Part shown: piece after piece, positions 6,102 through 22,326 of the stretch
Layout: every line of letters starts with the position of its first letter
Numbering within the stretch: position 1 is the stretch's first letter
Assembly: GCF_019464535.1 (NCBI RefSeq)
Contig: NZ_CP080507.1
Span: 1,080,001 to 1,112,000 of the forward strand
Direction: 5' to 3'
From: Horticoccus luteus
GTDB taxonomy: Bacteria; Verrucomicrobiota; Verrucomicrobiia; Opitutales; Opitutaceae
Length of the DNA: 32,000 nucleotides
Program-made: the position numbers and the translations under genes
The notes under the pieces: model-generated
The model's input: the letters and a program-made list of their open reading frames with translations, nothing else
Databases searched by the model: none
Told to the model about the DNA's origin: nothing

Positions 6102-6437
6102 TCAAGGCGCGGGCGGAATCGGCGGCGCGCTGTCGTCCATTTCCGGCCGCGGCGGGCGGTCGCCGTGGGGCGGGTGCGCGGGGCGAAATTCGTCCGGCGT
6201 AAGCTGGCCGTCGTGATTTTTGTCGAGCGTGAGCAAAGCGGTGGACGCGCGGGCGATTTCGTCGGCGGAAATTACGCCGTCGTGATTCGCGTCGAGTGCG
6301 ACGAGCAGCGGCGGCGGAGGCGGACGGTGGCCGTGGGCGGAGTCGGGCGGCGACGGCGGTGCGGCGTCGGCCGGTTGGGCGGGAAGCGCGAGCGCCAAAA
6401 GCGGCAGCGCGCAGAGAAGGCGAATAGGATTCTTCAT
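6102..6437 (-). CDS. Secreted small EF-hand pair protein with His/Pro-rich flanks
   Basis: Signal peptide MKNPIRLLCALPLLALALPAQPADA. There are two canonical 12-residue EF loops, DANHDGVISADE and DKNHDGQLTPDE. The flanks are HGHRPPPPP and HPPHGDRPPRPEMDD. An alternative GTG start at 6455 would add MRTSRR. Confidence 0.75.
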   Translation of the reverse strand: MKNPIRLLCALPLLALALPAQPADAAPPSPPDSAHGHRPPPPPLLVALDANHDGVISADEIARASTALLTLDKNHDGQLTPDEFRPAHPPHGDRPPRPEMDDSAPPIPPAP

Positions 6438-6461
6438 ACGCCGTGAGGTTCGCACGCGGAT

Positions 6462-6500
6462 GTTAAGCGTGGATGAACGGCGGTGCGGAAAATTGTTAAG
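6462..6500 (-). promoter_or_regulatory. Conserved element copy C (upstream of the EF-hand gene)
   Basis: The minus strand reads TCGCTTAACAATTTTCCGCACCGCCGTTCATCCACGCTTAACATC. The CTTAAC half-sites are 33 bp apart. The 17 nt GCTTAACAATTTTCCG... are identical to copy B. The element ends 24 nt before the ATG at 6437. Confidence 0.6.
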
Positions 6501-6542
6501 CGAGTGAAAAGCCAGCGCGGGAGGCGCCGCGCAGGCGGATGA

Positions 6543-8060
6543 TCAAGGCGCACGCGCGAGCTGGATCTCGGCGCCGAAGCCGTGAGGCGTGCGGTTGAAG
6601 AAGCGGACGTTGCCGCCGCACGCCGCGATGGAGGAACGCACGATCGCGAGGCCGAGGCCGGAGCCGCCCGTGTCTGCCGAGCGTGCTTCGTCGGGCCGGA
6701 AGAACGGTTCGCCGAGGCGGGCGAGCGCTTCGGGCGGCACGCCAGGTCCGTCGTCCTCAACGATGAGCTTGATGTGTCCATCGTCCGGCGCGGCGGAGAG
6801 AAAGACGTGACTGCCGGGGGCATAGCGCGCGGCATTGCGGAGGAGGTTGGCGACGGCGCGTTCGAGCAGCCGGGCATCCGCGAGCACGCGCAGGCTCGGC
6901 GCCACCTCGACGCGGCAGACGATAGCGGGTGCTTCGCGCATGTGAACGCGTTGCAGCAGCGGAGCGAGTTCCACCGGTGCGAGGCTGGCGGCGCGGGGCC
7001 GGAGCCCGGCCTGGGTGAACGCCATCAATTCGTTCACGAGCTGGCTCATGTGCTGCACCTCGTCGCGCACGTCGCCGAGGGGGGCGGTGGCGGCGGCGCC
7101 AGTGCGTTGCTCAAGAATTTCGACGGCGACCTGCAGGCGGCCGAGAGGTGAGCCGAGCTCGTGGGCGACGTCGCCGAGAAAACGTTTCTGGCCTTGTGCC
7201 TGAGTTTCGAGGCGGGCGGCCATGCGGTTAACGGACTCGCCGAGGTGACCAAGTTCGTCGCGGCGGCGGGTCGGAACGCGCGTGGTGAAATCGCCAGAGG
7301 CGATGCGTTCGGTGGCGGCGCCGAGCTGGCGCAGGGCGCGGCTGATGCCGCGGACGAGCGGGAGCCAAAACAAAATGGAAACCACCAGGACGCCGGCAGC
7401 GGTGAGGAACCACGGCGTGAGGTCGAGGAGGCCGAGGAGCGCGCGGAGCGAAGAGGAATGCACGACGAGACTCACGGGTTCGGGGCGGCCGTTGTGGTCG
7501 ACGGGCGGCATGCGCACGATGAGCCACCAGGCGGCGGGTTCGCCGACGTGAAACAAATGCCGGCCGCGCGCGAGATTCCGGGCGTTGGCGCCGGGACGAT
7601 CGGAGCGGAGGTCGGGCGGCGGAGCGGCGTCGTCGCGAGGAGGCGCATCGTCGTGGAACTCGTCGCGGTCGTGGCGGGGTGGCGGGCGCGAGCCAGGCGG
7701 TGGTGGCGGGAGACCGAGAGGCGGTGGAGGGCGGAGTAGTGCGATGACTTCGCGCGGGAGTTCGGGGGCGTGACCGGCCCGCGTTTCGCCGCTCTCGTTG
7801 GCGACAACCGCATAATCGAGTTGGTCGCTGAGCGGGAGGTGCGCGACGGCAGCGGTGGCGTCGTCGGTCGCGCGAAGTTCGGCGGCGAGGAGGTTGGCGG
7901 CGGCCTGGGCGCGTTCACCGGCGGGTCCGCGCACGAGAGCGTCGAGGCCCGAGGCGTCGGACGTGACGAACAGCACGCAAGCGGCGAGCGCGGCGACGAG
8001 GAGGAGGTTGAGCACGAGCCAGAGCGAAACCTTGAGCGAGAGGGGGAAGCGGACGTGCAT
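6543..8060 (-). CDS. Sensor histidine kinase, CpxA/EnvZ-like (TM - periplasmic domain - TM - HAMP - HisKA - HATPase)
   Basis: HAMP-like segment RALRQLGAATERIASGDFTTRVP...LGESVNRMAARLE. H-box FLGDVAHELGSPLGRL. N-box LLRNAARYA. G-boxes DDGPGVPPE and GGSGLGLAIV. I prefer the ATG at 8060 (MHVRFPLSLKVSLWLVL...) over the TTG at 8090. Confidence 0.85.
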   Translation of the reverse strand: MHVRFPLSLKVSLWLVLNLLLVAALAACVLFVTSDASGLDALVRGPAGERAQAAANLLAAELRATDDATAAVAHLPLSDQLDYAVVANESGETRAGHAPELPREVIALLRPPPPLGLPPPPPGSRPPPRHDRDEFHDDAPPRDDAAPPPDLRSDRPGANARNLARGRHLFHVGEPAAWWLIVRMPPVDHNGRPEPVSLVVHSSSLRALLGLLDLTPWFLTAAGVLVVSILFWLPLVRGISRALRQLGAATERIASGDFTTRVPTRRRDELGHLGESVNRMAARLETQAQGQKRFLGDVAHELGSPLGRLQVAVEILEQRTGAAATAPLGDVRDEVQHMSQLVNELMAFTQAGLRPRAASLAPVELAPLLQRVHMREAPAIVCRVEVAPSLRVLADARLLERAVANLLRNAARYAPGSHVFLSAAPDDGHIKLIVEDDGPGVPPEALARLGEPFFRPDEARSADTGGSGLGLAIVRSSIAACGGNVRFFNRTPHGFGAEIQLARAP

Positions 8061-8123
8061 GCGGAAGCGGGAGTGAGGCGAGCGTAGCAAGCGGCGGAGG
8101 AAAATCCCGCGGATTTACGCGGC

Positions 8124-8161
8124 CTTAACAATAAACCAGCCGACCCTCATGCAGGCTTAAC
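8124..8161 (+). promoter_or_regulatory. Conserved element copy A (upstream of the YHYH gene, in the divergent region with the kinase gene)
   Basis: The plus strand reads GGCCTTAACAATAAACCAGCCGACCCTCATGCAGGCTTAACTTGG. The CTTAAC half-sites lie at 8124-8129 and 8156-8161, 32 bp apart. The element ends 39 nt before the ATG at 8201. Confidence 0.6.
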
Positions 8162-8200
8162 TTGGGCGGAGTGAAATGGAGGCAACTTCTCCTCCCCATC

Positions 8201-10780
8201 ATGAAACTTCGTTTTTCGCTTGGTGTTTTTTGTGCCGGGTTCGCGGTCGTGCGGTCGGCGGATGCCGCCGTCAGCGATCCGCTGGTGACGAGTTGGTTGA
8301 CGGCGCCGACGGGCTGGTATGCGCGTCTGTATCAAAGTGACGCGGCGAAGGCGGCGGGCACGGCGGTGACGACGTGGAGCCGCGGTCAGACGAATCAAAC
8401 GGCGCCTGTTTACGCGGGTGTGATGCAGGTTTCGTATTCGACGGGCTGGGTCTATCTGCGCACGAGTGGGCTAGGTTACCACGTGATGGGGCCGTGGTAT
8501 CTCGACGCGGGGCACCTGCAGAATTTTCCGAACTTTCCTGGCAACACGGCGACGATTTATCGGTTTCCGCGGGTGCCGGCGGCGGCGGTCACCCACACGC
8601 TCACCAACGGCGGGGCGATCGGTTACTTCGTCGATGGCGTGGCGATGTTCGACAACCGCGACACGTTTTCCTACACGCATGCCTCGAGTCAGGACGCCAC
8701 GCCCGTGAATGGCCTGCACGGTGACGGCGTGTGGAATCGCGATGCGTTCGTGAACGAAGCGGTGACGTTCGATCCGGCGTATGCGCATCAGGCGGGATCG
8801 CAATATCACTACCACGCCAACACGCCGGCGCTGCGGCACGAGTTGGGCGATCATGTGGATTTCAATGCGAACACGCGGACGTATCAGGAAAGCAGTGCGG
8901 CCGTGACCGCGCACTCGCCGATCGTGGGTTGGGCGGCGGATGGCTATCCAGTCTATGGGCCGTATGGCTATGCGTCGGCGATGGACGCGGGCAGCGGCGT
9001 GCGGCGAATGATCTCAGGCTATGTGAAACGCGACGGCACGCGCGGCACGATCAACCTCGCGAGCACCGGGCGCACGACGTTGCCGGCGTGGGCGGCGCGC
9101 GCGCAAAGTCGCAGTGCATCGCTCGCGCCGACGGTGCAGGGACCGGCGGTGAACGGCACTTACACGCTCGGACATTACCTCGAAGACTACGAATATCTGG
9201 GCGATGTGGGTGGCACGCTGGGAACGAATTTCGATCTCGACGAATACAACGGCCGGGAGTGCGTGACGCCCGAATTTCCGCAGGGCACCTACGCGTATTT
9301 CTTGAGCATCGAGGACGACGGCACGCCGAAGTTTCCTTACATTCTGGGGCGCTGGTTCCGCGGCACACCGGCGGGAGGGCCGGTGACAGCGTTGAGCGAG
9401 ACGGTGACGGAATACGTGCGCGGCGCGCCGGCCGCGGCGATCGGAGTGATGGCCGGCGCGGCGGTGGGAGGCGGGGTGACGTTGAGTTGGAATTCGGCGG
9501 AAGGCGCGACGTATAAAGTCGAATCGTCGGCGGATCAGGCGGCGTGGACGACGCTGGCGGCGGCGGTCACGAGCGGGGGCGCGACGACGAGTTACGGGGC
9601 GCCGGTGGCGGGATATTATCGGGTGACGTTGGTGGCGATCGCCACGTATGACACGAACGGCCCGGTCGGCACGCCGGTGGGCACGGCGGGGATCGTGGCG
9701 TATGCGCCAACGGTAGCGCCGACGATCACCACGGCGCCGGTAAGCGCGACAGTGGCGGCAGGCGGAGAGGCGATGCTGGCCGTGGAAGCGAACGGGTCAG
9801 GGCCGCTCGCCTACCAATGGCGAAAGGACGGCGTGGATGTCGCGGCTGCGACAGAGGCGACGCTGACGATTCCGTTCGCGCAGACGAAAGACAGCGGAAG
9901 TTACGTGGTCGCGGTGAGCAACGCCGGTGGGGCGGCGACGAGTGCGGCGGCGGCGTTGACGGTGACGCCGACACCGACCGCAGCGACGGCGCGATTGATG
10001 AATCTCTCGACGCGCGCGCAGACGGGCGGCGCGACGGGCATGCCGATTGTGGGTTTCGTGCTGAGTGGGCCGGGAACGCGGACGATGCTCGTGCGCGCGG
10101 CGGGTCCGGCGCTGGCCAACTCGGGCGTGAGCGCACCGCTGGCGGATCCGAGTTTGTCGCTGGTCAGGGAGGGAACGCTGCTGGCGGCGAACGAGGATTG
10201 GAGCGCGAGCGACGCCGCGACGTTTACGGCGGCGGGCGCCTTCCTGTTTACGGCGGGCAGCAAGGATGCGGCGCTGGTGAGCGCGCTCGCGGGCGGGGTT
10301 TACTCGGCACCGGTGGGCACAGGCGGCGGCATGGGCGTGGCACTGGTGGAAGTTTACGATGCGGGCGGCAATGCGGTCGGACCGGCACTCACCAACCTCT
10401 CGAGTCGAACATTTGTCGGCGTGGGCGAACAGGTGGCGATCGCGGGTTTTGTGATCGGCGGCAGCGGGCCGATGCGACTGCTGTTGCGCGCGGCCGGTCC
10501 CGCGCTGGCGGCGTATGGCGTCGGCGATGCGCTCGTCGATCCGCGCGTGACGCTTTACGCGGGCAGCGCGGTGGTGGCGACGAATGACGACTGGAGCGAC
10601 AACGTGGATGCGGCGACGGTTGCGACGACGGCGACGGAGACGGGCGCGTTTGCGTTGGCGAGCGGAAGCAAGGATGCGGCGATGATCGTGAGTCTGCCGC
10701 CCGGCGTTTATTCGATGGTCGTGGCGGGCGCAGGCGCGAATACCGGCACGGCGCTGGCGGAAATTTACGTGGTGCCGTGA
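8201..10780 (+). CDS. Large secreted YHYH-domain protein with Fn3-like and Ig-like (I-set type) domains and two tandem C-terminal modules
   Basis: Signal peptide MKLRFSLGVFCAGFAVVRSADA. The YHYH motif (GSQYHYHAN, nt 8804-8815), HSPIVGWAADGYPVYGPYG and LDEYNGRE...FPYILGRWFRG fit the YHYH domain family. An Ig-like segment lies around 9719-9970 (LAYQWRKDG...DSGSYVVAVSNAGG). The ATG at 8201 is chosen for its signal peptide over the GTG at 8162. Confidence 0.75.
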   Translation: MKLRFSLGVFCAGFAVVRSADAAVSDPLVTSWLTAPTGWYARLYQSDAAKAAGTAVTTWSRGQTNQTAPVYAGVMQVSYSTGWVYLRTSGLGYHVMGPWYLDAGHLQNFPNFPGNTATIYRFPRVPAAAVTHTLTNGGAIGYFVDGVAMFDNRDTFSYTHASSQDATPVNGLHGDGVWNRDAFVNEAVTFDPAYAHQAGSQYHYHANTPALRHELGDHVDFNANTRTYQESSAAVTAHSPIVGWAADGYPVYGPYGYASAMDAGSGVRRMISGYVKRDGTRGTINLASTGRTTLPAWAARAQSRSASLAPTVQGPAVNGTYTLGHYLEDYEYLGDVGGTLGTNFDLDEYNGRECVTPEFPQGTYAYFLSIEDDGTPKFPYILGRWFRGTPAGGPVTALSETVTEYVRGAPAAAIGVMAGAAVGGGVTLSWNSAEGATYKVESSADQAAWTTLAAAVTSGGATTSYGAPVAGYYRVTLVAIATYDTNGPVGTPVGTAGIVAYAPTVAPTITTAPVSATVAAGGEAMLAVEANGSGPLAYQWRKDGVDVAAATEATLTIPFAQTKDSGSYVVAVSNAGGAATSAAAALTVTPTPTAATARLMNLSTRAQTGGATGMPIVGFVLSGPGTRTMLVRAAGPALANSGVSAPLADPSLSLVREGTLLAANEDWSASDAATFTAAGAFLFTAGSKDAALVSALAGGVYSAPVGTGGGMGVALVEVYDAGGNAVGPALTNLSSRTFVGVGEQVAIAGFVIGGSGPMRLLLRAAGPALAAYGVGDALVDPRVTLYAGSAVVATNDDWSDNVDAATVATTATETGAFALASGSKDAAMIVSLPPGVYSMVVAGAGANTGTALAEIYVVP
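9989..10384 (+). repeat. C-terminal module copy 1 of the YHYH protein (about 130 aa)
   Basis: Shares with copy 2: NLS(T/S)R, GFV(L/I)xGxG, L(V/L)RAAGPALA, L(A/V)DP, NxDWS, GSKDAA, GVYS and AL(V/A)E(V/I)Y. Confidence 0.7.
10385..10777 (+). repeat. C-terminal module copy 2 of the YHYH protein (about 130 aa)
   Basis: See copy 1. The two translated segments align by eye along their full length. Confidence 0.7.
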
Positions 10781-10802
10781 TGCGCGGCGGCGCGTCAACT
10801 GC

Positions 10803-11540
10803 TTACTCGGGGTCGTCGGGCGCGCGCATCATGTAGCCGGCAGAGCGGAGCGTGCGGATGAAGCGCGGGTTCTTGGCATCGTCGCCGAGCTTTTTGCGAA
10901 GCGAAGAAATGTGCACGTCGATGGAGCGGTCGAAAACGTCGTAGTTGCGGTCGCGGCATTCGTCGAGGAGGGCTTCGCGGGTTTTGACGCGGCCCCGGGC
11001 GCGCGCGAGGCTCGCGAGCAGGTCGAACTCCACGGGCGTGAGCACCAAGGGCGCGGCGTCGAGCACGGCGCGACGGGCGTCGAGGTTGACGCGCAGAGGG
11101 CCGACGGTGAATTCTGCGCGCGGTGCGTCGGCGGCGGCGATGGTGCGTTGGCTGCGACGGAGGACGGCGCGGAGGCGGGCGAGGAGTTCGCGCGTGGAAA
11201 ATGTTTTAGGCACGTAGTCGTCGGCGCCGACTTCGAGTCCGACGATGCGGTCCATCTCATCGCCGCGCGCGGTGAGCATCAGCACGGGAACGTCGACGCG
11301 CGCGCGGATGCGTTTCAGGACTTCAAAGCCGTCGAGGCCGGGGAGCATGACGTCGAGGATGACGGCGTGCCAGGACTCGGTGGTCGACGTGGCGCGGTCG
11401 ACGCCGTCGGGACCGGTGTGCGCGGCGGAGACATCGAAGCCGAGTGGCGCGAGATAGGCGGTGACGAGCCGGCAGAACTTGCGGTCGTCGTCGATCATGA
11501 GCACGCGGGTGCGGCCGGGATCGGGGGCGGCGTCGGTCAT
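10803..11540 (-). CDS. OmpR/PhoB-family response regulator, CpxR-like
   Basis: Receiver domain RVLMIDDD...ILDVMLPGLDGFEVLKRIR...MLTARGDEMDRIVGLEVGADDYVPKTFSTRELLARLRAVLRR. Winged-helix C-terminus LTPVEFDLL...DVHISSLRKKLG...IRTLRSAGYM. ATG at 11540. Confidence 0.9.
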   Translation of the reverse strand: MTDAAPDPGRTRVLMIDDDRKFCRLVTAYLAPLGFDVSAAHTGPDGVDRATSTTESWHAVILDVMLPGLDGFEVLKRIRARVDVPVLMLTARGDEMDRIVGLEVGADDYVPKTFSTRELLARLRAVLRRSQRTIAAADAPRAEFTVGPLRVNLDARRAVLDAAPLVLTPVEFDLLASLARARGRVKTREALLDECRDRNYDVFDRSIDVHISSLRKKLGDDAKNPRFIRTLRSAGYMMRAPDDPE

Positions 11541-11585
11541 GGGGGCGTTGTGCGGGAGGGCGCGGAGCGGCGCAACTTTTGTTCG

Positions 11586-11634
11586 CTTAACAGGGGCTTA
11601 ACAATTTTCCGAAGGCTCCTCATACGGGCTTAAC
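11586..11634 (+). promoter_or_regulatory. Conserved element copy B (upstream of the MbnP-MbnH gene, in the divergent region with the regulator gene), with an extra upstream half-site
   Basis: The plus strand reads CGCTTAACAGGGGCTTAACAATTTTCCGAAGGCTCCTCATACGGGCTTAACTGCG. CTTAAC lies at 11586, 11597 and 11629, giving spacings of 11 and 32 bp. The element ends 21 nt before the ATG at 11656. Confidence 0.6.
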
Positions 11635-11655
11635 TGCGAACGGCGAGAGTGAGGC

Positions 11656-13458
11656 ATGCGCTGGTTCGCGTTACTTGTGTTGCCGGTGGGGTCGTCGCAG
11701 GCGGCGGAGCTGACGATGCGGGTGGCGTTGCGGTGGGGCGGCGAATCGCTGGCCGTGCCGTCGACGGAGGTGCGCACGGACGCGGGGATGAAGTTGCGGG
11801 TGACGCGGCTGGCGGCGTTGCTGTCGGGCGCGGTGTTGACGAAGAGCGACGGGACGGTGGTGCGGCTCGACGGGCAATTTGGTTTTATCGACGCGGAGTC
11901 GGGGCGGCTGGCATGGACGTTGCGCGGCGTGCCGGCGGGCGACTATGCGGGACTCGGTTTTCAAGTCGGCGTGCCGACGGCGGTGAACCATGCCGATCCC
12001 GGACAGTGGCCGGCGGGGCACGCGCTGAATCCGCTGGTGGACCGGCTGCACTGGAGCTGGCAGGGCGGCTATGTGTTTTTCGCGCTGGAAGGACGCTGGC
12101 GTGACGGGGCGACGCCGGACACGGCGACGGAGCGCGGGTTTTCGTATCACGTGGCGACGGAGGCGCGTTTGATGAGGGTGAATTTCGTGGCGGCGTTTCG
12201 CGTGGAGGGTGCGACGACGGTCACATTGGCGCTGAATGTGGCGCGGGTTTTGGCGGTGCCGCAATGGGCGGCGGCAGGCAACGAGAGCACGCATTCGGCG
12301 GTCGGCGATGAGCTCGCGCCGAAGCTGGCGAACGCGTTCAGCCGCGGGTGGTTTTGGCTGGGCGCGGAGGAGGCGTCGCGTGCGGCGAACTCGGCGCGCG
12401 TCGATGAAGCAGCAGAAGCGCCGACGGCGGTGGCGGGCGATGCGAAGAGAGGAAAAGCCGCGGGCGCGAAGCCGCGGGCATTTGTGGTGCCGGCGGGGTT
12501 TCCGCAGCCGGATTTGCCGCAGGACAATCCGTTGACGGAAGAAGGGATCGCGTTGGGAAAAGTGTTGTTCAACGACCGGCGGCTGTCGGCGGGCGGGCAA
12601 CAGTCGTGCGCGAGCTGCCATGCGCCGGAGCGTGGGTTCAGCGACGACGTGGCGCGGAGCCGCGGCGCGAACGGCGGAGTGGGCGAGCGGAATGCGATGC
12701 CGTTGCTGAATCTGGCGTGGAGTCCGGCGTTTGCGTGGGACGGCGCGCAGCCGCGGATCCGCGATCAGGCGCGGGCGGCGATGTTGAATCCGCGGGAAAT
12801 GGCGGCGGACGAGCACGTGGTGCTGGCGACGCTCAATGGTGATGCGGTGTTGCGGGCGCGTTTCGCGGTGGCTTTCGGGCCGGGTGAAATCACGGCGGAC
12901 CGGCTCGGCCGGGCGTTGGAGCAATACTTGCTGACGCTGGTGGCGGCGGACTCAAAATTCGACCGGGCGATGCGGGGAGAGGAAACGTTGACCGCCGAGG
13001 AGCAGCGGGGATTTGAGTTGTTCGCGACGGAATACGATCCGGCGCGCGGGCGCAGGGGCGGCGATTGCTTTCACTGCCACGGCGGCGCGTTGTTCACCGA
13101 TTACGCGTATCGGAGCAACGGATTGGAGCGCGTCTCGGGCGATGCGGGGCGCGCGCGGGTGACGGGGCGCGAGGAAGATCGCGGGAAGTTCAAGACGCCG
13201 TCGCTGCGCAACGTGGCGTTGACGGCGCCGTATATGCACGACGGGCGGCTGAGGACGCTTGAGGACGTCGTCGCGCACTACGATCACGGCGTGCAGCGGG
13301 GGGCGTCGCTCGATCCCAATCTGGCGAAGCATCCGCTGGCGGGGATGCAACTGCCGTCAGCGGATCAGGCGGCGCTGGTGGCGTTTTTGCGGACGTTGAC
13401 CGAGAGCGCTTCGGTGGGCGCGGGCGGAGAACGGCGCGCGAGAGCGGCGGCGCGTTGA
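11656..13458 (+). CDS. Fusion protein: N-terminal MbnP-like domain + C-terminal MbnH/MauG-type di-heme cytochrome c peroxidase
   Basis: Short signal peptide. In the N-domain, VPAGDYAGLGFQVGVPTAVNHADP and NPLVDRLHWSWQGGYVFFALEG match the MbnP-family pattern as I recall it. An Ala/Lys-rich linker follows. In the C-domain the two heme motifs are CASCH (nt 12607-12621) and CFHCH (nt 13066-13080), with the CCP signatures GKVLFND, RNAMPLLN, WDG, FKTPSLRNV and APYMHDG. Confidence 0.7.
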   Translation: MRWFALLVLPVGSSQAAELTMRVALRWGGESLAVPSTEVRTDAGMKLRVTRLAALLSGAVLTKSDGTVVRLDGQFGFIDAESGRLAWTLRGVPAGDYAGLGFQVGVPTAVNHADPGQWPAGHALNPLVDRLHWSWQGGYVFFALEGRWRDGATPDTATERGFSYHVATEARLMRVNFVAAFRVEGATTVTLALNVARVLAVPQWAAAGNESTHSAVGDELAPKLANAFSRGWFWLGAEEASRAANSARVDEAAEAPTAVAGDAKRGKAAGAKPRAFVVPAGFPQPDLPQDNPLTEEGIALGKVLFNDRRLSAGGQQSCASCHAPERGFSDDVARSRGANGGVGERNAMPLLNLAWSPAFAWDGAQPRIRDQARAAMLNPREMAADEHVVLATLNGDAVLRARFAVAFGPGEITADRLGRALEQYLLTLVAADSKFDRAMRGEETLTAEEQRGFELFATEYDPARGRRGGDCFHCHGGALFTDYAYRSNGLERVSGDAGRARVTGREEDRGKFKTPSLRNVALTAPYMHDGRLRTLEDVVAHYDHGVQRGASLDPNLAKHPLAGMQLPSADQAALVAFLRTLTESASVGAGGERRARAAAR

Positions 13459-15442: not shown

Positions 15443-17023
15443 ATGAACCGACTGGCGGAACGACTCGGCGCTTCCAGCGACTTCCTGATCGGAGTCGAGT
15501 TGGTGTCCACGCGCGGAGGCCTTGATCAGCCGCACGCGGCGAAGACGTTGTCCCTGGCGCGCGACCTTGCTGGGGCGGCGAGCATCGACTGGGTGTCGAT
15601 CACAGACAACGCGGGCGGCAATCCGATGCTGGCTGCGTCCGCGTTGGGCGCACCATTGCGCGATGCCGGGCGGGAGGTGGTGATCCATTTGTCGTGCAAG
15701 GATTTTAATCGCAACGCGCTGGAGAGCGAGGCGTGGCGGCTGGCGAGCGAGGGGTTTCAGAACATTCTGGTGCTGACGGGAGATTATCCGGGGCACGGGG
15801 TGGGTGGGGGCGGCAAACCGGCGTTCGACATCGACGCGATCGGTTTGCTCACGCTGCTCGGCCAGATGAATGCCGGGCTGGACGTGACGCGCGAGGGGGC
15901 GAAGAAGGCGGTGCGACTCGAGCCGACGAAGTTTTTTCCGGGCGCGGTGGTGACGAATTTCAAGCTGCTCGAGAACGAAGTGATTCCGCAGTTGTTGAAG
16001 ATGGAGCGGAAGCTCGCGGCGGGCGCGCGTTTCCTGATCAACCAGATCGGTTACGATTCGCGCAAGGTGCACGAGTTGATTGCGTGGATGCGGCGGCGCG
16101 GTCACGGGCACGTGCCGTTGATTGGAAATGTTTATGTGCTCAACCCGGGCGTGGCGCGGGTCTTTCGCGCCAAGAAAATTCCGGGCGTGGTGATCTCGGA
16201 GGAGCTCGGCGATATCTGCGAGGCGCAGCGGGCGGCAGCGGACAAGGGCAAGGCGTTTTTCCTCGAACTGGCCGCGAAGCAAATCGCGATTTACCGCGGG
16301 CTCGGTTATCGCGGCGCGTATCTGGGCGGGGTGCATTCCGTGGCGGAGATCGAGCGCGTGCTGGAAATCGAGCGCGGGTTTGCGCCGGACGATTGGAAGC
16401 AGTTTGCGCGGGAGATCCAGTATTCGCGCCCGGGCGAATTTTTCGTGTTTGCGCGCGATGAGAACACGGGTCTCGCCAATCCGGAAAAGCTGGAAGCGAC
16501 GTATGCCGCTTCGCTGGGCGCGCATCCGCGGACCCAGAATGTCACGTTCACGTATCGATTTTCCAAGTTTGCGCACGAATTGATGTTCACGCCGGGCAAG
16601 GGCCTGTGGAAGGCGGGCGATGCGCTGTGCGCGAGCGCGAAGGATCCGCTGCAAGGGCCGGCATGGATGAGGGCGATCGAGCACACGAGCAAACGCCTGA
16701 TGTTTGACTGCCGCGATTGCGGTGACTGTTCCCTCTCGGAGATGGCGTTTCTGTGTCCAGAATCGTCGTGTGCGAAAAACCAACGCAACGGTCCGTGCGG
16801 GGGCACCCGGGATGGAAAGTGCGAGGTTTACGACTACGAGTGCATTTGGTCGCGCGCTTACGAGCGCCTGAAATTCGAGGGTCGCGAAGACCAGTTGCTC
16901 GCGCACACTCCCGCGGTGCAGGATCAGAGTCTGCGTTATACGTCGAGCTGGGCCAACACCTGGGCCCGCCGCGACCATCTCGCCAAACACCCTCCGGCCA
17001 GCCTCCCACCGATCAAATCCTGA
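15443..17023 (+). CDS. Methylenetetrahydrofolate reductase domain fused to an MTHFR_C (MetV-like, Cys-rich) domain
   Basis: The N-terminal roughly 300 aa carry MetF-like motifs: GVELVSTRG, VSITDNAGG, HLSCKD and ILVLTGDYP. The C-terminal segment is Cys-rich: FDCRDCGDCSLSEMAFLCPESSCAKNQRNGPCGGTRDGKCEV. That segment matches the MTHFR C-terminal/MetV-type domain as I recall it. Confidence 0.75.
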   Translation: MNRLAERLGASSDFLIGVELVSTRGGLDQPHAAKTLSLARDLAGAASIDWVSITDNAGGNPMLAASALGAPLRDAGREVVIHLSCKDFNRNALESEAWRLASEGFQNILVLTGDYPGHGVGGGGKPAFDIDAIGLLTLLGQMNAGLDVTREGAKKAVRLEPTKFFPGAVVTNFKLLENEVIPQLLKMERKLAAGARFLINQIGYDSRKVHELIAWMRRRGHGHVPLIGNVYVLNPGVARVFRAKKIPGVVISEELGDICEAQRAAADKGKAFFLELAAKQIAIYRGLGYRGAYLGGVHSVAEIERVLEIERGFAPDDWKQFAREIQYSRPGEFFVFARDENTGLANPEKLEATYAASLGAHPRTQNVTFTYRFSKFAHELMFTPGKGLWKAGDALCASAKDPLQGPAWMRAIEHTSKRLMFDCRDCGDCSLSEMAFLCPESSCAKNQRNGPCGGTRDGKCEVYDYECIWSRAYERLKFEGREDQLLAHTPAVQDQSLRYTSSWANTWARRDHLAKHPPASLPPIKS

Positions 17024-17060
17024 AGACGGCACTCGAATTCGTTCTCCGCATTTTTAATCT

Positions 17061-18410
17061 ATGAATATGTCAAAGCCCACCAACCTCGAAACGAAACTCC
17101 AGCAGTATGCCAGCCCCGTCGATATGTTGCGACATTCGACGGTCGGCGGCATCCAGTTCCCCATCAAGTCAGAGTATTCGAACTGGCGCGACGAGCAGGA
17201 GGCGTGGCAGCACAGCGTGATCCTTTTCGACCAGTCCTTTCACATGAAGGACGTCTACGTCGAGGGTCCCGACGTCAAACGGCTGATTTCCGATGTGGCG
17301 GTGAACTCGATGGCGAATTTCGGCGCCAACAAGGCCAAGCAGATTGTGGCCTGCAATTACGACGGGCGCGTGATCGGCGATGCCATTCTTTTCGGCCTGT
17401 CAGATGAAAAATACAGCGTGGTGGGCCGGCCGTCGGTGCCGAATTGGGTCGAGTTCAACGCGCGCACAGGCAACTACGACGTCAAAGTCACAGTGGATGA
17501 ATGGGCGATCTATAACAAGGGCCAGCGCCTGCTCTATCGTTATCAGATTCAGGGTCCGAATGCCTTGGAACTGATCAAGAGCGTGCACGAGGGTCCGTTT
17601 CCCGACATCAAGTTCTTCCATCTGGGCGAACTGAAGATCGCGGGGCACAAAGTGCGCGCGCTGGGGCACAACATGTCACGCATGGGTGGCCTGGAACTGC
17701 ACGGTCCGCTGGCGGAAGGGAAAGCGGTGCTCGACGCGATCCTGGCGGCGGGACCGAAGTTCGGCTTGGTGCAAGGCGGCAGCCGGTCTTACGCGACGGT
17801 CTCGCCGGAGAGCGGCTGGATTCCGTCGCCGATGCCCGCGATTTACGCCGGCGAGAAGATGAAGCCGTATCGCGAATGGCTGCCGGCGGAGGGTTTTGAG
17901 GCCACGGCGTCGCTCGGCGGCAGTTTTTCGTCCCCGAATATTGAAGACTACTATCAAACGCCGTGGGATCTCGGCTACGGGCGGCACGTCAAATTTGACC
18001 ACGACTTCATCGGCCGCGCGGCGCTGGAAAAAATCGCGGATCAGCCGCATCGCCGCAAAGTCTGGCTGCGCTGGAACAACGACGATGTGTTGAAGGTTTA
18101 CGCCAGCCAGCTCCGGCCGGGCGACCGTTACAAATACATGGAAATGCCGAACGCCTACTATTCCCTGCTGCCGTTCGACAAGGTGATGGTGAACGGCCGG
18201 ATGGTCGGTCTTTCGACTTACACGATCTACACGGCGAACGTGCGCGGGTGGTTCTCTCTGGCGATGGTGGACGACAATCTGGCTGATGGGGCCGAGGTGT
18301 CGGTCGTCTGGGGCGAAGAAAACGGCGGTTCGCCGCGGCCGATCGTCGAACGCCATGTGCAAACCGAAATCCGGGCGACCGTTTCCGACAACCGGCTCAA
18401 TCTGCCGTGA
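17061..18410 (+). CDS. GcvT-fold, tetrahydrofolate-dependent demethylase, LigM/DesA-like (aryl O-demethylase type)
   Basis: 449 aa, much longer than a true GcvT. Motifs resembling Sphingobium LigM from memory: PTNLE, DMLRHS, EYSNWRDEQEAWQHSVILFDQSFHM, NKAKQ, YQIQGPNA, ESGWIPSPMPAIYAGEKMKPYREWLPA, GGSFSSPNIEDYY, VKFDHDFIGRAALE and VWGEENGG. An alternative start is the ATG at 17067. Confidence 0.7.
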   Translation: MNMSKPTNLETKLQQYASPVDMLRHSTVGGIQFPIKSEYSNWRDEQEAWQHSVILFDQSFHMKDVYVEGPDVKRLISDVAVNSMANFGANKAKQIVACNYDGRVIGDAILFGLSDEKYSVVGRPSVPNWVEFNARTGNYDVKVTVDEWAIYNKGQRLLYRYQIQGPNALELIKSVHEGPFPDIKFFHLGELKIAGHKVRALGHNMSRMGGLELHGPLAEGKAVLDAILAAGPKFGLVQGGSRSYATVSPESGWIPSPMPAIYAGEKMKPYREWLPAEGFEATASLGGSFSSPNIEDYYQTPWDLGYGRHVKFDHDFIGRAALEKIADQPHRRKVWLRWNNDDVLKVYASQLRPGDRYKYMEMPNAYYSLLPFDKVMVNGRMVGLSTYTIYTANVRGWFSLAMVDDNLADGAEVSVVWGEENGGSPRPIVERHVQTEIRATVSDNRLNLP

Positions 18411-19282
18411 GCGCGTCCGCCCAAGCCCGGCTGCGGCTCATCGCGTCGTGTCCTGACCGGACTGGAATCGTCGCCCGCGTGGCGACGTTTCTGGCCGAGC
18501 GCGGGGCGTCGATCACGGAGGCAGCGCAATATAACGATCCGCGCAGCGAGATGTTTTTCATGCGCTCGGAATTTGTGATTGGCGGCGATGCGGAGGTGCT
18601 GGCGCGGCTCGAAAAGGAGTTTCAACCCATCGGAACGGAAATGAAGATGGCGTGGCGGATGGTGGATGCGCAGCGGCGGCAGCGCGTCGTGCTGCTCGTG
18701 AGCAAGTTTGACCACTGTCTCGCCTACCTGCTGCACCGGCGAAAAGTGGGGGATCTGGAGTTCGACGTGCCGTGCGTGATTTCGAATCACGAGGACCTGC
18801 GGTCGCTGGTCGAGTGGTATGGCATTCCTTATCATTACGTGCCCGTGCCGAAAGAATCGGCGGGCAAACAGGCGGCGTTGGAGAAGACGGCGCAGCTCAT
18901 TTCGGAGGCCGAGCCCGACACCATCGTGCTCGCGCGTTACATGCAGATCTTTCCGCCGTGGTTGTGCGAACGCTACCGCCATCGCGTGATCAACATTCAT
19001 CACAGTTTCCTGCCGTCCTTCGTCGGCGGGAAGCCGTATCACCAGGCCGAGGAACGCGGCGTGAAGCTCATCGGGGCGACGTGTCACTACGTCACCGAAG
19101 AACTCGACGCCGGTCCGATCATCGAGCAGGACGTGGTGCGCATCCGGCACAGCGACACGATCAAGGACATGATGCGCTTGGGGAAAGACGTGGAGAACGC
19201 GGTGTTGTCCCGCGGGCTACGTTATCACCTCGAGGACCGGGTGCTCGTGCACGGGAACAAGACGATTTTGTTTTCGGGCTGA
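18407..19282 (+). CDS. purU: Formyltetrahydrofolate deformylase
   Basis: ACT-like N-terminus (CPDRTGIVARVATFLAERGASI). Formyltransferase core with VINIHHSFLPSFVGGKPYHQAEERGVKLIGATCHYV. The GTG start overlaps the upstream stop (GTGA, 18407-18410). Confidence 0.85.
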   Translation: MSASAQARLRLIASCPDRTGIVARVATFLAERGASITEAAQYNDPRSEMFFMRSEFVIGGDAEVLARLEKEFQPIGTEMKMAWRMVDAQRRQRVVLLVSKFDHCLAYLLHRRKVGDLEFDVPCVISNHEDLRSLVEWYGIPYHYVPVPKESAGKQAALEKTAQLISEAEPDTIVLARYMQIFPPWLCERYRHRVINIHHSFLPSFVGGKPYHQAEERGVKLIGATCHYVTEELDAGPIIEQDVVRIRHSDTIKDMMRLGKDVENAVLSRGLRYHLEDRVLVHGNKTILFSG

Positions 19283-19303
19283 GTGATCCGACTGACTACG
19301 CGG

Positions 19304-19332
19304 GCGCGACGGTGGTTTTACGACCGTCGCGC
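19304..19332. terminator. 10-bp GC hairpin between the convergent purU and gcvP genes
   Basis: GCGCGACGGT (19304-19313) pairs with ACCGTCGCGC (19323-19332) across a 9-nt loop. A T5 run lies about 12 nt downstream. A second small hairpin, GGCGGA-GCGCG-TCCGCC, lies at 19364-19380. Confidence 0.35.
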
Positions 19333-19428
19333 CGCGCAGAGGATTTTTCGACGGAGTAATTCAGGCGGAGCGCGTCCGCCCAAGAGGCGTGTGTTGACGG
19401 AACCGCGGCGTGCGGCGGATGCTCAGCG

Positions 19429-22326
<2,898 letters not shown>

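Follow-up and report, generated by a model that had tools for sequence, protein, structure and literature searches.

What are three similar elements doing in front of three genes for exported proteins? A 32,000-nt stretch of the Horticoccus luteus genome (contig NZ_CP080507.1, positions 1,080,001 to 1,112,000; hereafter the window, in whose own numbering coordinates are given) carries three copies of a conserved sequence of about 45 nt, interspersed with the genes for a two-component system. We consider it likely that every copy serves the adjacent response regulator, which belongs to the OmpR/PhoB family, as a composite operator-promoter. The element is of a familiar kind, an OmpR/PhoB-type activator operator; the two-component system is uncharacterized and its putative regulon undescribed.

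Anatomy of the three elements

Two genes of the locus encode signaling proteins. The sensor histidine kinase (6543-8060, minus strand) combines two membrane segments with a periplasmic domain of some 200 amino acids and with HAMP, HisKA, and HATPase_c domains (Pfam/NCBIfam), and the OmpR/PhoB-family response regulator proposed to bind the boxes lies at 10803-11540 on the minus strand (Pfam/NCBIfam and PDB comparison). Three further genes are the putative targets. They encode a small exported EF-hand protein (6102-6437, minus; Pfam EF-hand_5/1/6), an exported YHYH-domain protein with an Ig domain (8201-10780, plus; PF14240, E 1.3e-38, with a signal-peptide-like N-terminus), and a fusion, MbnP-MbnH, of a domain from the MbnP copper-binding family with a MauG-like di-haem peroxidase (11656-13458, plus; PF20243, PF03150, TIGR04039).

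The original prediction quoted one 45-mer for each target gene. String comparison found all three (3/3) exactly where they had been placed: copy A at 8121-8165 and copy B at 11594-11638 on the plus strand, and copy C at 6503-6459 on the minus strand. Each is sense-oriented just 5′ of the YHYH, MbnP-MbnH, or EF-hand gene, respectively, with the kinase and regulator genes flanking the elements as claimed, and the Pfam and NCBIfam searches upheld the gene identities. Two details required correction. The stretch that copies B and C have in common is the 16-mer GCTTAACAATTTTCCG rather than a 17-mer, and the start codon of the YHYH gene is now placed at 8201.

Within the window the sequence is confined to these sites. 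GCTTAAC occurs six times in the 32 kb, compared to an expectation of 1.16, and six was reached in 0 of 100 shuffles. An earlier scan by eye had found CTTAAC nowhere outside the elements, and this holds: seven of seven such hexamers fall inside the three copies, in three intergenic regions. The composite pattern CTTAACAA-N15/16-YCAY-N4-SCTTAAC is present three times, where 0.00 would be expected and every shuffle gave zero.

Each element can be read as a four-part structure comprising an upstream box, an 11-bp gap, a proximal box, and a -10-like hexamer. The upstream box, TTWAC-N6-CTTAAC(AA), is formed by two head-to-tail half-sites (sites 1 and 2) with an 11-bp period. One empty 11-bp slot parts it from the proximal box, cwcAY-N6-(C)TTAAC, in which a weak half-site precedes a strong one (site 3). 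The hexamer, T(A/T)T(A)nT, stands at a fixed distance, exactly 10 nt past the last GCTTAAC (the site 3 heptamer) in each copy, and so lies beyond the 45 nt originally delimited.

In copy A, the upstream box (8112-8129, plus) is an 11-bp direct repeat of site 1 GATTTAC (8112-8118) and site 2 CCTTAAC (8123-8129), which are separated by 4 nt. The proximal box (8146-8161, plus) consists of the weak half-site CTCAT (8146-8150), which contains the TCAT of the original prediction, then 6 nt and the TTAAC of site 3 GCTTAAC (8155-8161). The hexamer TGAAAT (8172-8177, plus) follows site 3 by 10 nt, and the ATG at 8201 lies 23 nt farther on. Transcription is predicted to start near 8184, which would leave about 17 nt of leader.

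Copy B has the most regular upstream box, GCTTAAC-N4-GCTTAAC (11585-11602, plus), whose complement reads TTAAG-N6-TTAAG; 44 nt part this box from the ATG of the divergent regulator gene (11540). Its proximal box (11619-11634, plus) comprises CTCAT (11619-11623), 6 nt, and the TTAAC of GCTTAAC (11628-11634), and its hexamer is GAGAGT (11645-11650, plus). The ATG at 11656 is just 5 nt past this hexamer and an in-frame TGA occupies 11650-11652, which predicts that the MbnP-MbnH mRNA is probably leaderless.

Copy C is read on the minus strand, with an upstream box (6495-6512) of site 1 GCTTTTC (6512-6506), 4 nt, and site 2 GCTTAAC (6501-6495), and a proximal box (6462-6477) of TTCAT (6477-6473), 6 nt, and the TTAAC of GCTTAAC (6468-6462). 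From the 8 nt between the hexamer GAACCT (6451-6446) and the ATG at 6437, the EF-hand mRNA is predicted to be leaderless or near-leaderless, probably with at most a 1-2-nt leader. The aberrant site 1 of this copy is also the T-tract of a terminator-like hairpin located 3′ of the kinase stop codon (6515-6532, minus; six G-C pairs, then TGGCTTTTCA). This G+C-rich hairpin parts the kinase transcript from the EF-hand promoter, and terminator tail and half-site may be one and the same sequence.

This anatomy alters how several original observations are understood. The extra half-site 11 bp upstream, reported for copy B, is real but not unique to that copy, because GATTTAC in A and GCTTTTC in C occupy the same place as GCTTAAC in B. 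TCAT had been offered as a -10 element; it instead sits in exact 11-bp register as the weak half-site, and the -10-like hexamer lies 10 nt 3′ of the last GCTTAAC. The spacing of 32-33 bp, once treated as a feature of its own, is the offset between the strong half-sites of the two boxes. There is no -35 hexamer, and a generic sigma-70 scan found no consensus promoter in any of the three spacers. The features of an OmpR/PhoB operator are present: direct repeats of 10-11 bp, a linked OmpR-family regulator gene, a last repeat about 10 bp before the -10, and no -35.

Conservation and promoter geometry in the Verrucomicrobiota

At least 120 orthologs of the regulator, 78-100% identical, are found among the matches listed. 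One set of eight loci (166 kb) was fetched only via regulator orthologs of 78-85% identity. Most of these keep the neighborhood, with MbnPH beside the regulator, YHYH divergent from the kinase, and then the EF-hand gene. A gene for an extracytoplasmic function (ECF) sigma factor intervenes in some; locus L001 lacks MbnPH and YHYH, and L008 lacks all of these neighbors. A loose regular expression for the tandem matched 16 times on both strands of the 166 kb, and 15 of these matches are sense-oriented before MbnPH, YHYH, ECF-sigma, or EF-hand genes, or lie in the regulator-kinase spacer of L001. An nhmmer profile made from the matches recovered four more elements, on which it had not been trained, in like positions, and exactly three in the 32-kb window. 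Conservation in loci picked by the regulator protein alone favors the original view that these are operator sites of the adjacent two-component system.

The same association emerges when the search begins from DNA. A genome collection was scanned with the DNA pattern alone, in a form satisfied by all three H. luteus copies, and 74 stretches were returned. Of these, 46 belong to Verrucomicrobiota (Opitutae, Chthoniobacterales, Verrucomicrobiales, Limisphaerales, and Methylacidiphilales), and 38 of the 46 adjoin homologs of the regulator (65-79% identity), the kinase, or the EF-hand, MbnPH, or YHYH genes, which again supports assignment to the two-component system. Regulator orthologs in this identity range stand beside pattern-selected elements in 15 loci. 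Wherever downstream open reading frames (ORFs) were read in the Verrucomicrobiota matches, the motif points into the target gene. Site 1 lay outside the search pattern, yet it occurs at the exact 11-bp offset in 45 of the 46 Verrucomicrobiota matches versus none of the 28 from other phyla. A separate curiosity of the scan is one Bacteriovoracaceae metagenome-assembled genome with four identical copies of a pattern-matching sequence of more than 70 nt (L042:273-311, L048:39-77, L064:1170-1208, L074:6749-6787), which probably form a dispersed repeat with no relation to this system.

In total, 66 unique elements were assembled from 54 Verrucomicrobiota loci (496 kb), and 65 could be anchored on the final C of site 3. 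An unbiased subset comprises 23 elements that were not selected by the search pattern. In this subset, site 1 reads T (23/23), T (23/23), W, A (23/23), C (22/23), site 2 is CTTAACAA, and the weak half-site reduces to an A-Y that never varies (23/23) and keeps exact 11-bp register with the site 3 AC. Half-site positions are conserved there while spacers vary; the spacer between sites 1 and 2 is N6 in all elements. A metagenome scan that used the upstream box alone yielded 59 testable matches (397 kb of loci), of which 26 carry site 3 at +32/33, and 23 of those 26 have a T at +16.

These data bear on whether the copies might be unconnected with the two-component system, either as a mobile repeat resembling repetitive extragenic palindromic (REP) elements or as a structured RNA leader. 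Three similar copies within 5 kb would suit such an origin, to which we nevertheless give almost no credence. An ORF of at least 70 amino acids begins no more than 160 nt downstream from 63 of the 65 elements, in the sense orientation, and just three matches occur in 32 kb. The strict orientation and position hold in all DNA examined, both the window and the 496 kb of related loci, and run counter to the REP-like identity that had been raised as a possible refutation. An RNA leader is opposed by folding that is no better than that of shuffled sequences (z = 0.74, 0.37, and -1.06 for the three elements) and by the lack of an Rfam match, and both versions by conservation that resides in the half-site positions rather than the spacers.

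The geometry downstream from site 3 supports the composite operator-promoter. Sites 2 and 3 are 32 or 33 nt apart in 64 of the 65 anchored elements, with 32 elements at each distance. Past site 3, position +16 is T in 62 of 65, position +11 in 44 of 65, and position +13 in 42 of 65, with A or T at +12. Start codons fall at characteristic distances from this hexamer: 4-9 nt for MbnPH-type and most ECF-sigma genes, 15-30 nt for YHYH genes, and 54-77 nt for EF-hand genes. In MbnPH orthologs from seven other species the ATG is 4-7 nt after the equivalent T. The N-termini opened by these start codons are always signal-peptide-like.

Another layout was considered, in which the regulator binds the upstream tandem only, site 2 (TTAACA) acts as a -35, the CAT/TCAT 17 nt on acts as the -10, and transcription starts at the third GCTTAAC. 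TTAACA matches TTGACA at five of six positions, the A of CAT takes the -11 position with a 17-nt spacer, and the leaders would be a plausible 21-40 nt. However, the CAT hexamer has no conserved T at -7, in contrast to the T found in 62 of 65 cases in the fixed +11 to +16 hexamer after site 3, and CAT lies in exact 11-bp half-site register. The MbnPH-class ATGs 4-7 nt past the downstream hexamer T, and the presence of TAnnnT at the same offset in 11 of 11 true Pho boxes (see below), also oppose it. This model was dropped because anchoring on site 3 gave the near-invariant +16 T and the start-codon distances, and we now judge it improbable.

Could the regulator occupy these same sites and repress, with the proximal box beside the -10 blocking RNA polymerase until a signal removes the protein? 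OmpR-family proteins can repress from positions beside the -10, and the proximal box does overlap the region that polymerase occupies. The absence of a -35 hexamer together with weak -10s is a hallmark of activator-dependent promoters and therefore argues against repression, and the same geometry activates in the case of PhoB (PMC1906773) and BqsR (PMC4358008). We regard control by repression as a poor prospect, and activation from a composite operator-promoter as the better account of the same sites.

The original prediction had also offered an ECF-sigma-type promoter with an AAC-containing -35 and TCAT as its -10. AAC motifs are typical of ECF -35 elements, and in some relatives a gene for an ECF sigma factor lies between those for the kinase and the EF-hand protein. 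This proposal did not survive and is now highly improbable. No ECF gene is present among the 19 window ORFs scanned, and the elements persist in H. luteus, L005, and L009, where no ECF gene lies between kinase and EF-hand gene. ECF promoters do not feature an 11-bp tandem repeat, and a hexamer 10 nt after AAC is too near for the ECF spacer of about 16-17 nt. Where an ECF gene does occur its own element precedes it, which makes the gene a target rather than a constant partner. GTCTAAT motifs were entertained as ECF -10s and rejected, as their spacing to any AAC is too short.

In the Opitutaceae loci concerned, a full element stands before an ECF sigma gene situated between the kinase and the EF-hand gene (L001:10743-10803, L003:12909-12967, L007:15317-15381), and another element precedes the EF-hand gene that follows. 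This arrangement suggests a regulator-to-sigma cascade in some Opitutaceae, without counterpart in H. luteus. EF-hand genes of other lineages have conserved leaders of 55-75 nt (L055:3364+, L034:3550-, L028:5465-, L068:6199-, L084:5297+, L063:409+, L036:3053-, L046:493+, and relatives). By eye these contain hairpin-forming stretches, for example ...GGATACGTAAGGCGGC...GCCGC... or ...GGGCAGACCCACTGCCC..., and they may add RNA-level control in those lineages; the EF-hand gene of H. luteus lacks a leader of this kind.

The EF-hand class is the commonest target across the phylum, with homologs in 21 of the 46 Verrucomicrobiota pattern stretches. Further classes found downstream from elements are DHOR di-haem proteins, multicopper oxidase, CotH, a TPR protein, and a YHYH-EF-hand fusion. 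That fusion, in L078, is 381 amino acids long. A 1005-amino-acid protein in L022 has an N-terminus that appears sulfatase-like by eye and YHYH homology by tblastn, and L010:11217-13304 holds a sulfatase gene between two YHYH genes. Such fusions and neighborhoods hint that YHYH, EF-hand, and sulfatase-type targets act jointly. Not every regulator ortholog keeps the local regulon: at L008:8001-8738, an 80%-identical ortholog has no adjacent kinase, lies beside TonB-receptor and glycogen genes, and has no element within 8 kb.

Pho-box grammar without phosphate genes

Eleven matches to the DNA pattern come from Pyrinomonadaceae/Blastocatellia of the Acidobacteriota (L011, L025, L035, L040, L044, L049, L050, L057, L060, L077, and L083; e.g., L025:983-1021 and L049:2915-2953). 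They consist of four contiguous 11-bp repeats, TTAAC-N6-TTAAG-N6-TTCAC-N6-TTAAC, and carry TAnnnT at the same +11 to +16 offset in 11 of 11 cases versus 2 of 14 scattered chance matches. The elements precede TonB-receptor-like genes followed by pstS-pstC, or pstS directly. Genes for PstS or PstC are present in six of the 11 loci, and the PstS proteins score 397-409 bits against a cut-off of 205. Because of this pst context we regard the Acidobacteriota elements as genuine Pho boxes, which provide an internal positive control, and they look like the cyanobacterial (CTTAAC) type of Pho box in another phylum. A hairpin reading of their TTAAGGCGC...GCGCCTTAA was dropped, since four 11-bp direct repeats plus TAnnnT before pst operons fit better. 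Given the shared half-site, period, and -10 distance, the H. luteus elements use the same Pho-box grammar.

Among the closest known precedents is the SphR box of Synechocystis PCC 6803, which has three or more tandem 8-bp repeats of consensus CTTAACCT with 3-bp linkers (PMC1906773). The H. luteus elements share its CTTAAC core, its 11-bp period, and its use of several head-to-tail, sense-strand repeats per promoter. They differ in that their positions are split into two, a gap, and two, and in that the phylum-wide consensus of the first half-site is TTTAC. In addition, the regulator and kinase are not PhoB/PhoR-like in NCBIfam scores or domains, and the targets are not phosphate-acquisition genes. 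The pho box of Escherichia coli PhoB is an activating site of tandem direct repeats 10 bp upstream of the -10, where it replaces the -35 (summarized in PMC1906773). Here too the 11-bp direct repeats, the missing -35, and a -10 about 10 nt past the last repeat agree, whereas the E. coli half-site is of CTGTCAT type and that of H. luteus is CTTAAC.

The core region bound by Bacillus subtilis PhoP has four TT(A/T/C)ACA repeats with 11-bp periodicity at about -60 to -20. Its variants TTAACA, TTTACA, and TTCACA cover sites 2 and 3, site 1, and the weak half-site, respectively, and the number of positions and their span relative to the start are similar. Gram-positive PhoR has a PAS domain, and the H. 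luteus kinase does not. An Enterococcus match to the pattern (L026:1226-1264, minus) has TTTAC/CTTAAC/TTTAC repeats and TAAAGT at the same +11 to +16 offset, and precedes a lipoprotein gene near a kinase fragment; it may represent a PhoP-type box of Firmicutes and not a coincidental match.

Are the H. luteus elements then ordinary Pho boxes, with a PhoB/SphR-type regulator elsewhere or this pair itself as the phosphate system, and the three targets phosphate-starvation genes? The half-site, the 11-bp period, and the -10 distance equal those of the SphR box (PMC1906773) and of the Acidobacteriota pstS-pstC boxes. Among full-length PDB matches, RegX3, the phosphate-responsive regulator of mycobacteria, ranks first for the regulator, with MtrA scoring nearly the same. 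However, the regulator falls far below the PhoB equivalog cut-offs (174 vs. 296 for TIGR02154; 168 vs. 270 for NF053854) and the kinase far below that for PhoR (121 vs. 334). The kinase also combines a large periplasmic domain with HAMP and lacks a PAS domain.

Gene content points the same way. Queries with Acidobacteriota PstS and PstC found no pstS or pstC in the 54 Verrucomicrobiota loci (496 kb) or the 59 metagenome box loci (397 kb), and approximate E. coli PstS and PhoU queries gave no match in the Verrucomicrobiota loci. The Verrucomicrobiota boxes are also split, begin with TTTAC, and are tightly linked to this regulator/kinase pair. An ordinary phosphate regulon is therefore unlikely here, and a Pho-type operator that serves another two-component system is preferred.

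The regulator's closest relatives point to no one known system. CpxR is among its best NCBIfam and PDB matches, the score against the CpxR model is 188 (cut-off 341), and one ortholog (P0067) carries the JGI label CpxR. Identity to E. coli PhoB is 35-40%, calculated with an approximate PhoB query. The DNA-binding domain is nearest in the PDB to RstA, CpxR, and OmpR, and for this reason specific orthology is not claimed.

The CpxR box of E. coli is GTAAA-N5-GTAAA, with a 10-bp period. A likeness to this box, suggested originally, holds at the level of the half-site, as TTTAC of site 1 in Verrucomicrobiota is the exact complement of GTAAA, but not for the period, which is 11 bp (spacer N6). The second half-site, TTAAC, and a regulator below the CpxR cut-off are further differences. 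The H. luteus system resembles Cpx in its envelope-type kinase and in having a small periplasmic target that is encoded divergently.

The BqsRS/CarSR system of Pseudomonas aeruginosa responds to Ca2+. It responds to Fe2+ as well, and its box is TTAAG-N6-TTAAG (PMC4358008; PMC13522522). The BqsR box overlaps the -35 and activates, as established by electrophoretic mobility shift assay and cRACE, and the bqs operon is autoregulated (PMC4358008). As far as site sequences are compared, the upstream box of copy B matches it exactly when the complementary strand is read, with 5-bp units repeated in tandem every 11 bp, and the cation response finds a parallel in the EF-hand genes as commonest target in Verrucomicrobiota. 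The phylum-wide first half-site, in contrast, is TTTAC rather than CTTAA, and an alignment of kinase orthologs revealed no conserved RExxE-type or His-type sensor motif in the periplasmic domain. Residues 110-170 or so of that domain form a low-complexity insert rich in Pro, Gly, Arg, and Asp, whose length varies greatly among orthologs and whose flanks are conserved.

Probable autoregulation and a candidate envelope regulon

Copies A and B lie in spacers shared with the kinase and regulator genes, and it was originally suggested that the sites could autoregulate the system. The distance from site 1 to the divergent ATG is 46 nt for the regulator and 53 nt for the kinase in H. luteus, and 40-60 nt in 39 of 44 cases over all loci. 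At such distances a divergent regulator or kinase promoter must overlap the upstream box, so the suggestion is geometrically plausible. Some copies consist of the upstream box alone. A GC-rich class from the metagenomes has only this box, inverted, 40-41 nt before regulator-kinase operons (L118:4498-4515, L126:401-418, L127:6310-6327, L143:695-712), with neither proximal box nor -10 on the sense side. L001 likewise retains the upstream box alone in its regulator-kinase spacer (L001:8944-8992), YHYH having been lost. Such copies are probably dedicated autoregulatory sites. No consistent -10 hexamer was found at a fixed offset from the upstream box for the divergent kinase and regulator promoters. 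The regulator probably also autoregulates through the upstream box.

If PhoB, SphR, and BqsR are a guide, the kinase would phosphorylate the regulator, dimers of which would then bind head to tail at both boxes. At the last GCTTAAC (about -29 to -23) a protomer would replace the -35 contact and recruit RNA polymerase, as is documented for PhoB and for BqsR (PMC4358008), and transcription would begin some 7 nt beyond each hexamer. All three target genes, EF-hand, YHYH, and MbnP-MbnH, would be switched on together. At copies A and B the upstream box would also overlap the divergent kinase and regulator promoters, and binding there would feed back on the system.

Sequence comparison shows the anatomy of the element, its conservation, its linkage to the two-component genes, and its equivalence to Pho-type promoters. 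Several observations weigh against a composite operator read by this regulator. The binder is assigned by gene neighborhood, and the half-site vocabulary in common with true Pho boxes may allow cross-talk with a PhoB-type regulator. The weak half-site, cwcAY, agrees with the TTWAC consensus at A-Y only, and the empty 11-bp slot between the boxes departs from the textbook contiguous layout. The -11 position of the hexamer is A in only 26 of the 65 elements, and many of the -10s are poor by E. coli standards. Finally, the H. luteus genome is absent from the collection that was scanned, and its copies are counted within the 32-kb window only.

The window also contains a one-carbon/glycine block 3′ of the locus (15443-22326) that is unrelated to the boxes. 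It comprises an MTHFR-like gene (15443-17023), a GCV_T-like gene (17061-18410), a gene for a formyltransferase with an ACT domain (18407-19282), and the glycine dehydrogenase gene GcvP (19429-22326, minus).

The signal may be a cation cue in the envelope, as the exported EF-hand, copper-family, and haem targets would suggest. We tentatively propose, as a possibility that we hold with less than even confidence, a phylum-wide envelope circuit of the Verrucomicrobiota. Its kinase and regulator would sense an extracytoplasmic cation (calcium, copper, or similar) and co-induce EF-hand, YHYH, and MbnP-MbnH genes together with DHOR, multicopper-oxidase, and some ECF-sigma genes. They would do so via a split Pho-type operator that also serves a divergent promoter, and several of the transcripts would be leaderless.

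Regulation in the Verrucomicrobiota has been almost unstudied. In our literature search no publication connected MbnP/MbnH or YHYH genes with a two-component system, and nothing relevant emerged on YHYH/PF14240 or on EF-hand proteins of Verrucomicrobia. The value of the present analysis lies in a defined regulon and concrete predictions rather than a novel mechanism. It offers a testable operator-promoter model in which half-sites, -10 hexamers, and start sites are predicted, and a cross-phylum target list for a highly conserved regulator (about 80% identity in many genomes). The CTTAAC-type grammar of cyanobacteria serves true pst operons in Acidobacteriota and a non-phosphate system here, and therefore warns against calling regulons from half-site similarity alone. 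For the organisms themselves, the findings suggest that EF-hand, YHYH, and MbnP-MbnH proteins, three poorly understood exported families, act in one physiological response. If the envelope circuit proves true, it would provide the first functional handle on the YHYH family and would tie MbnP/MbnH to a dedicated signaling system.

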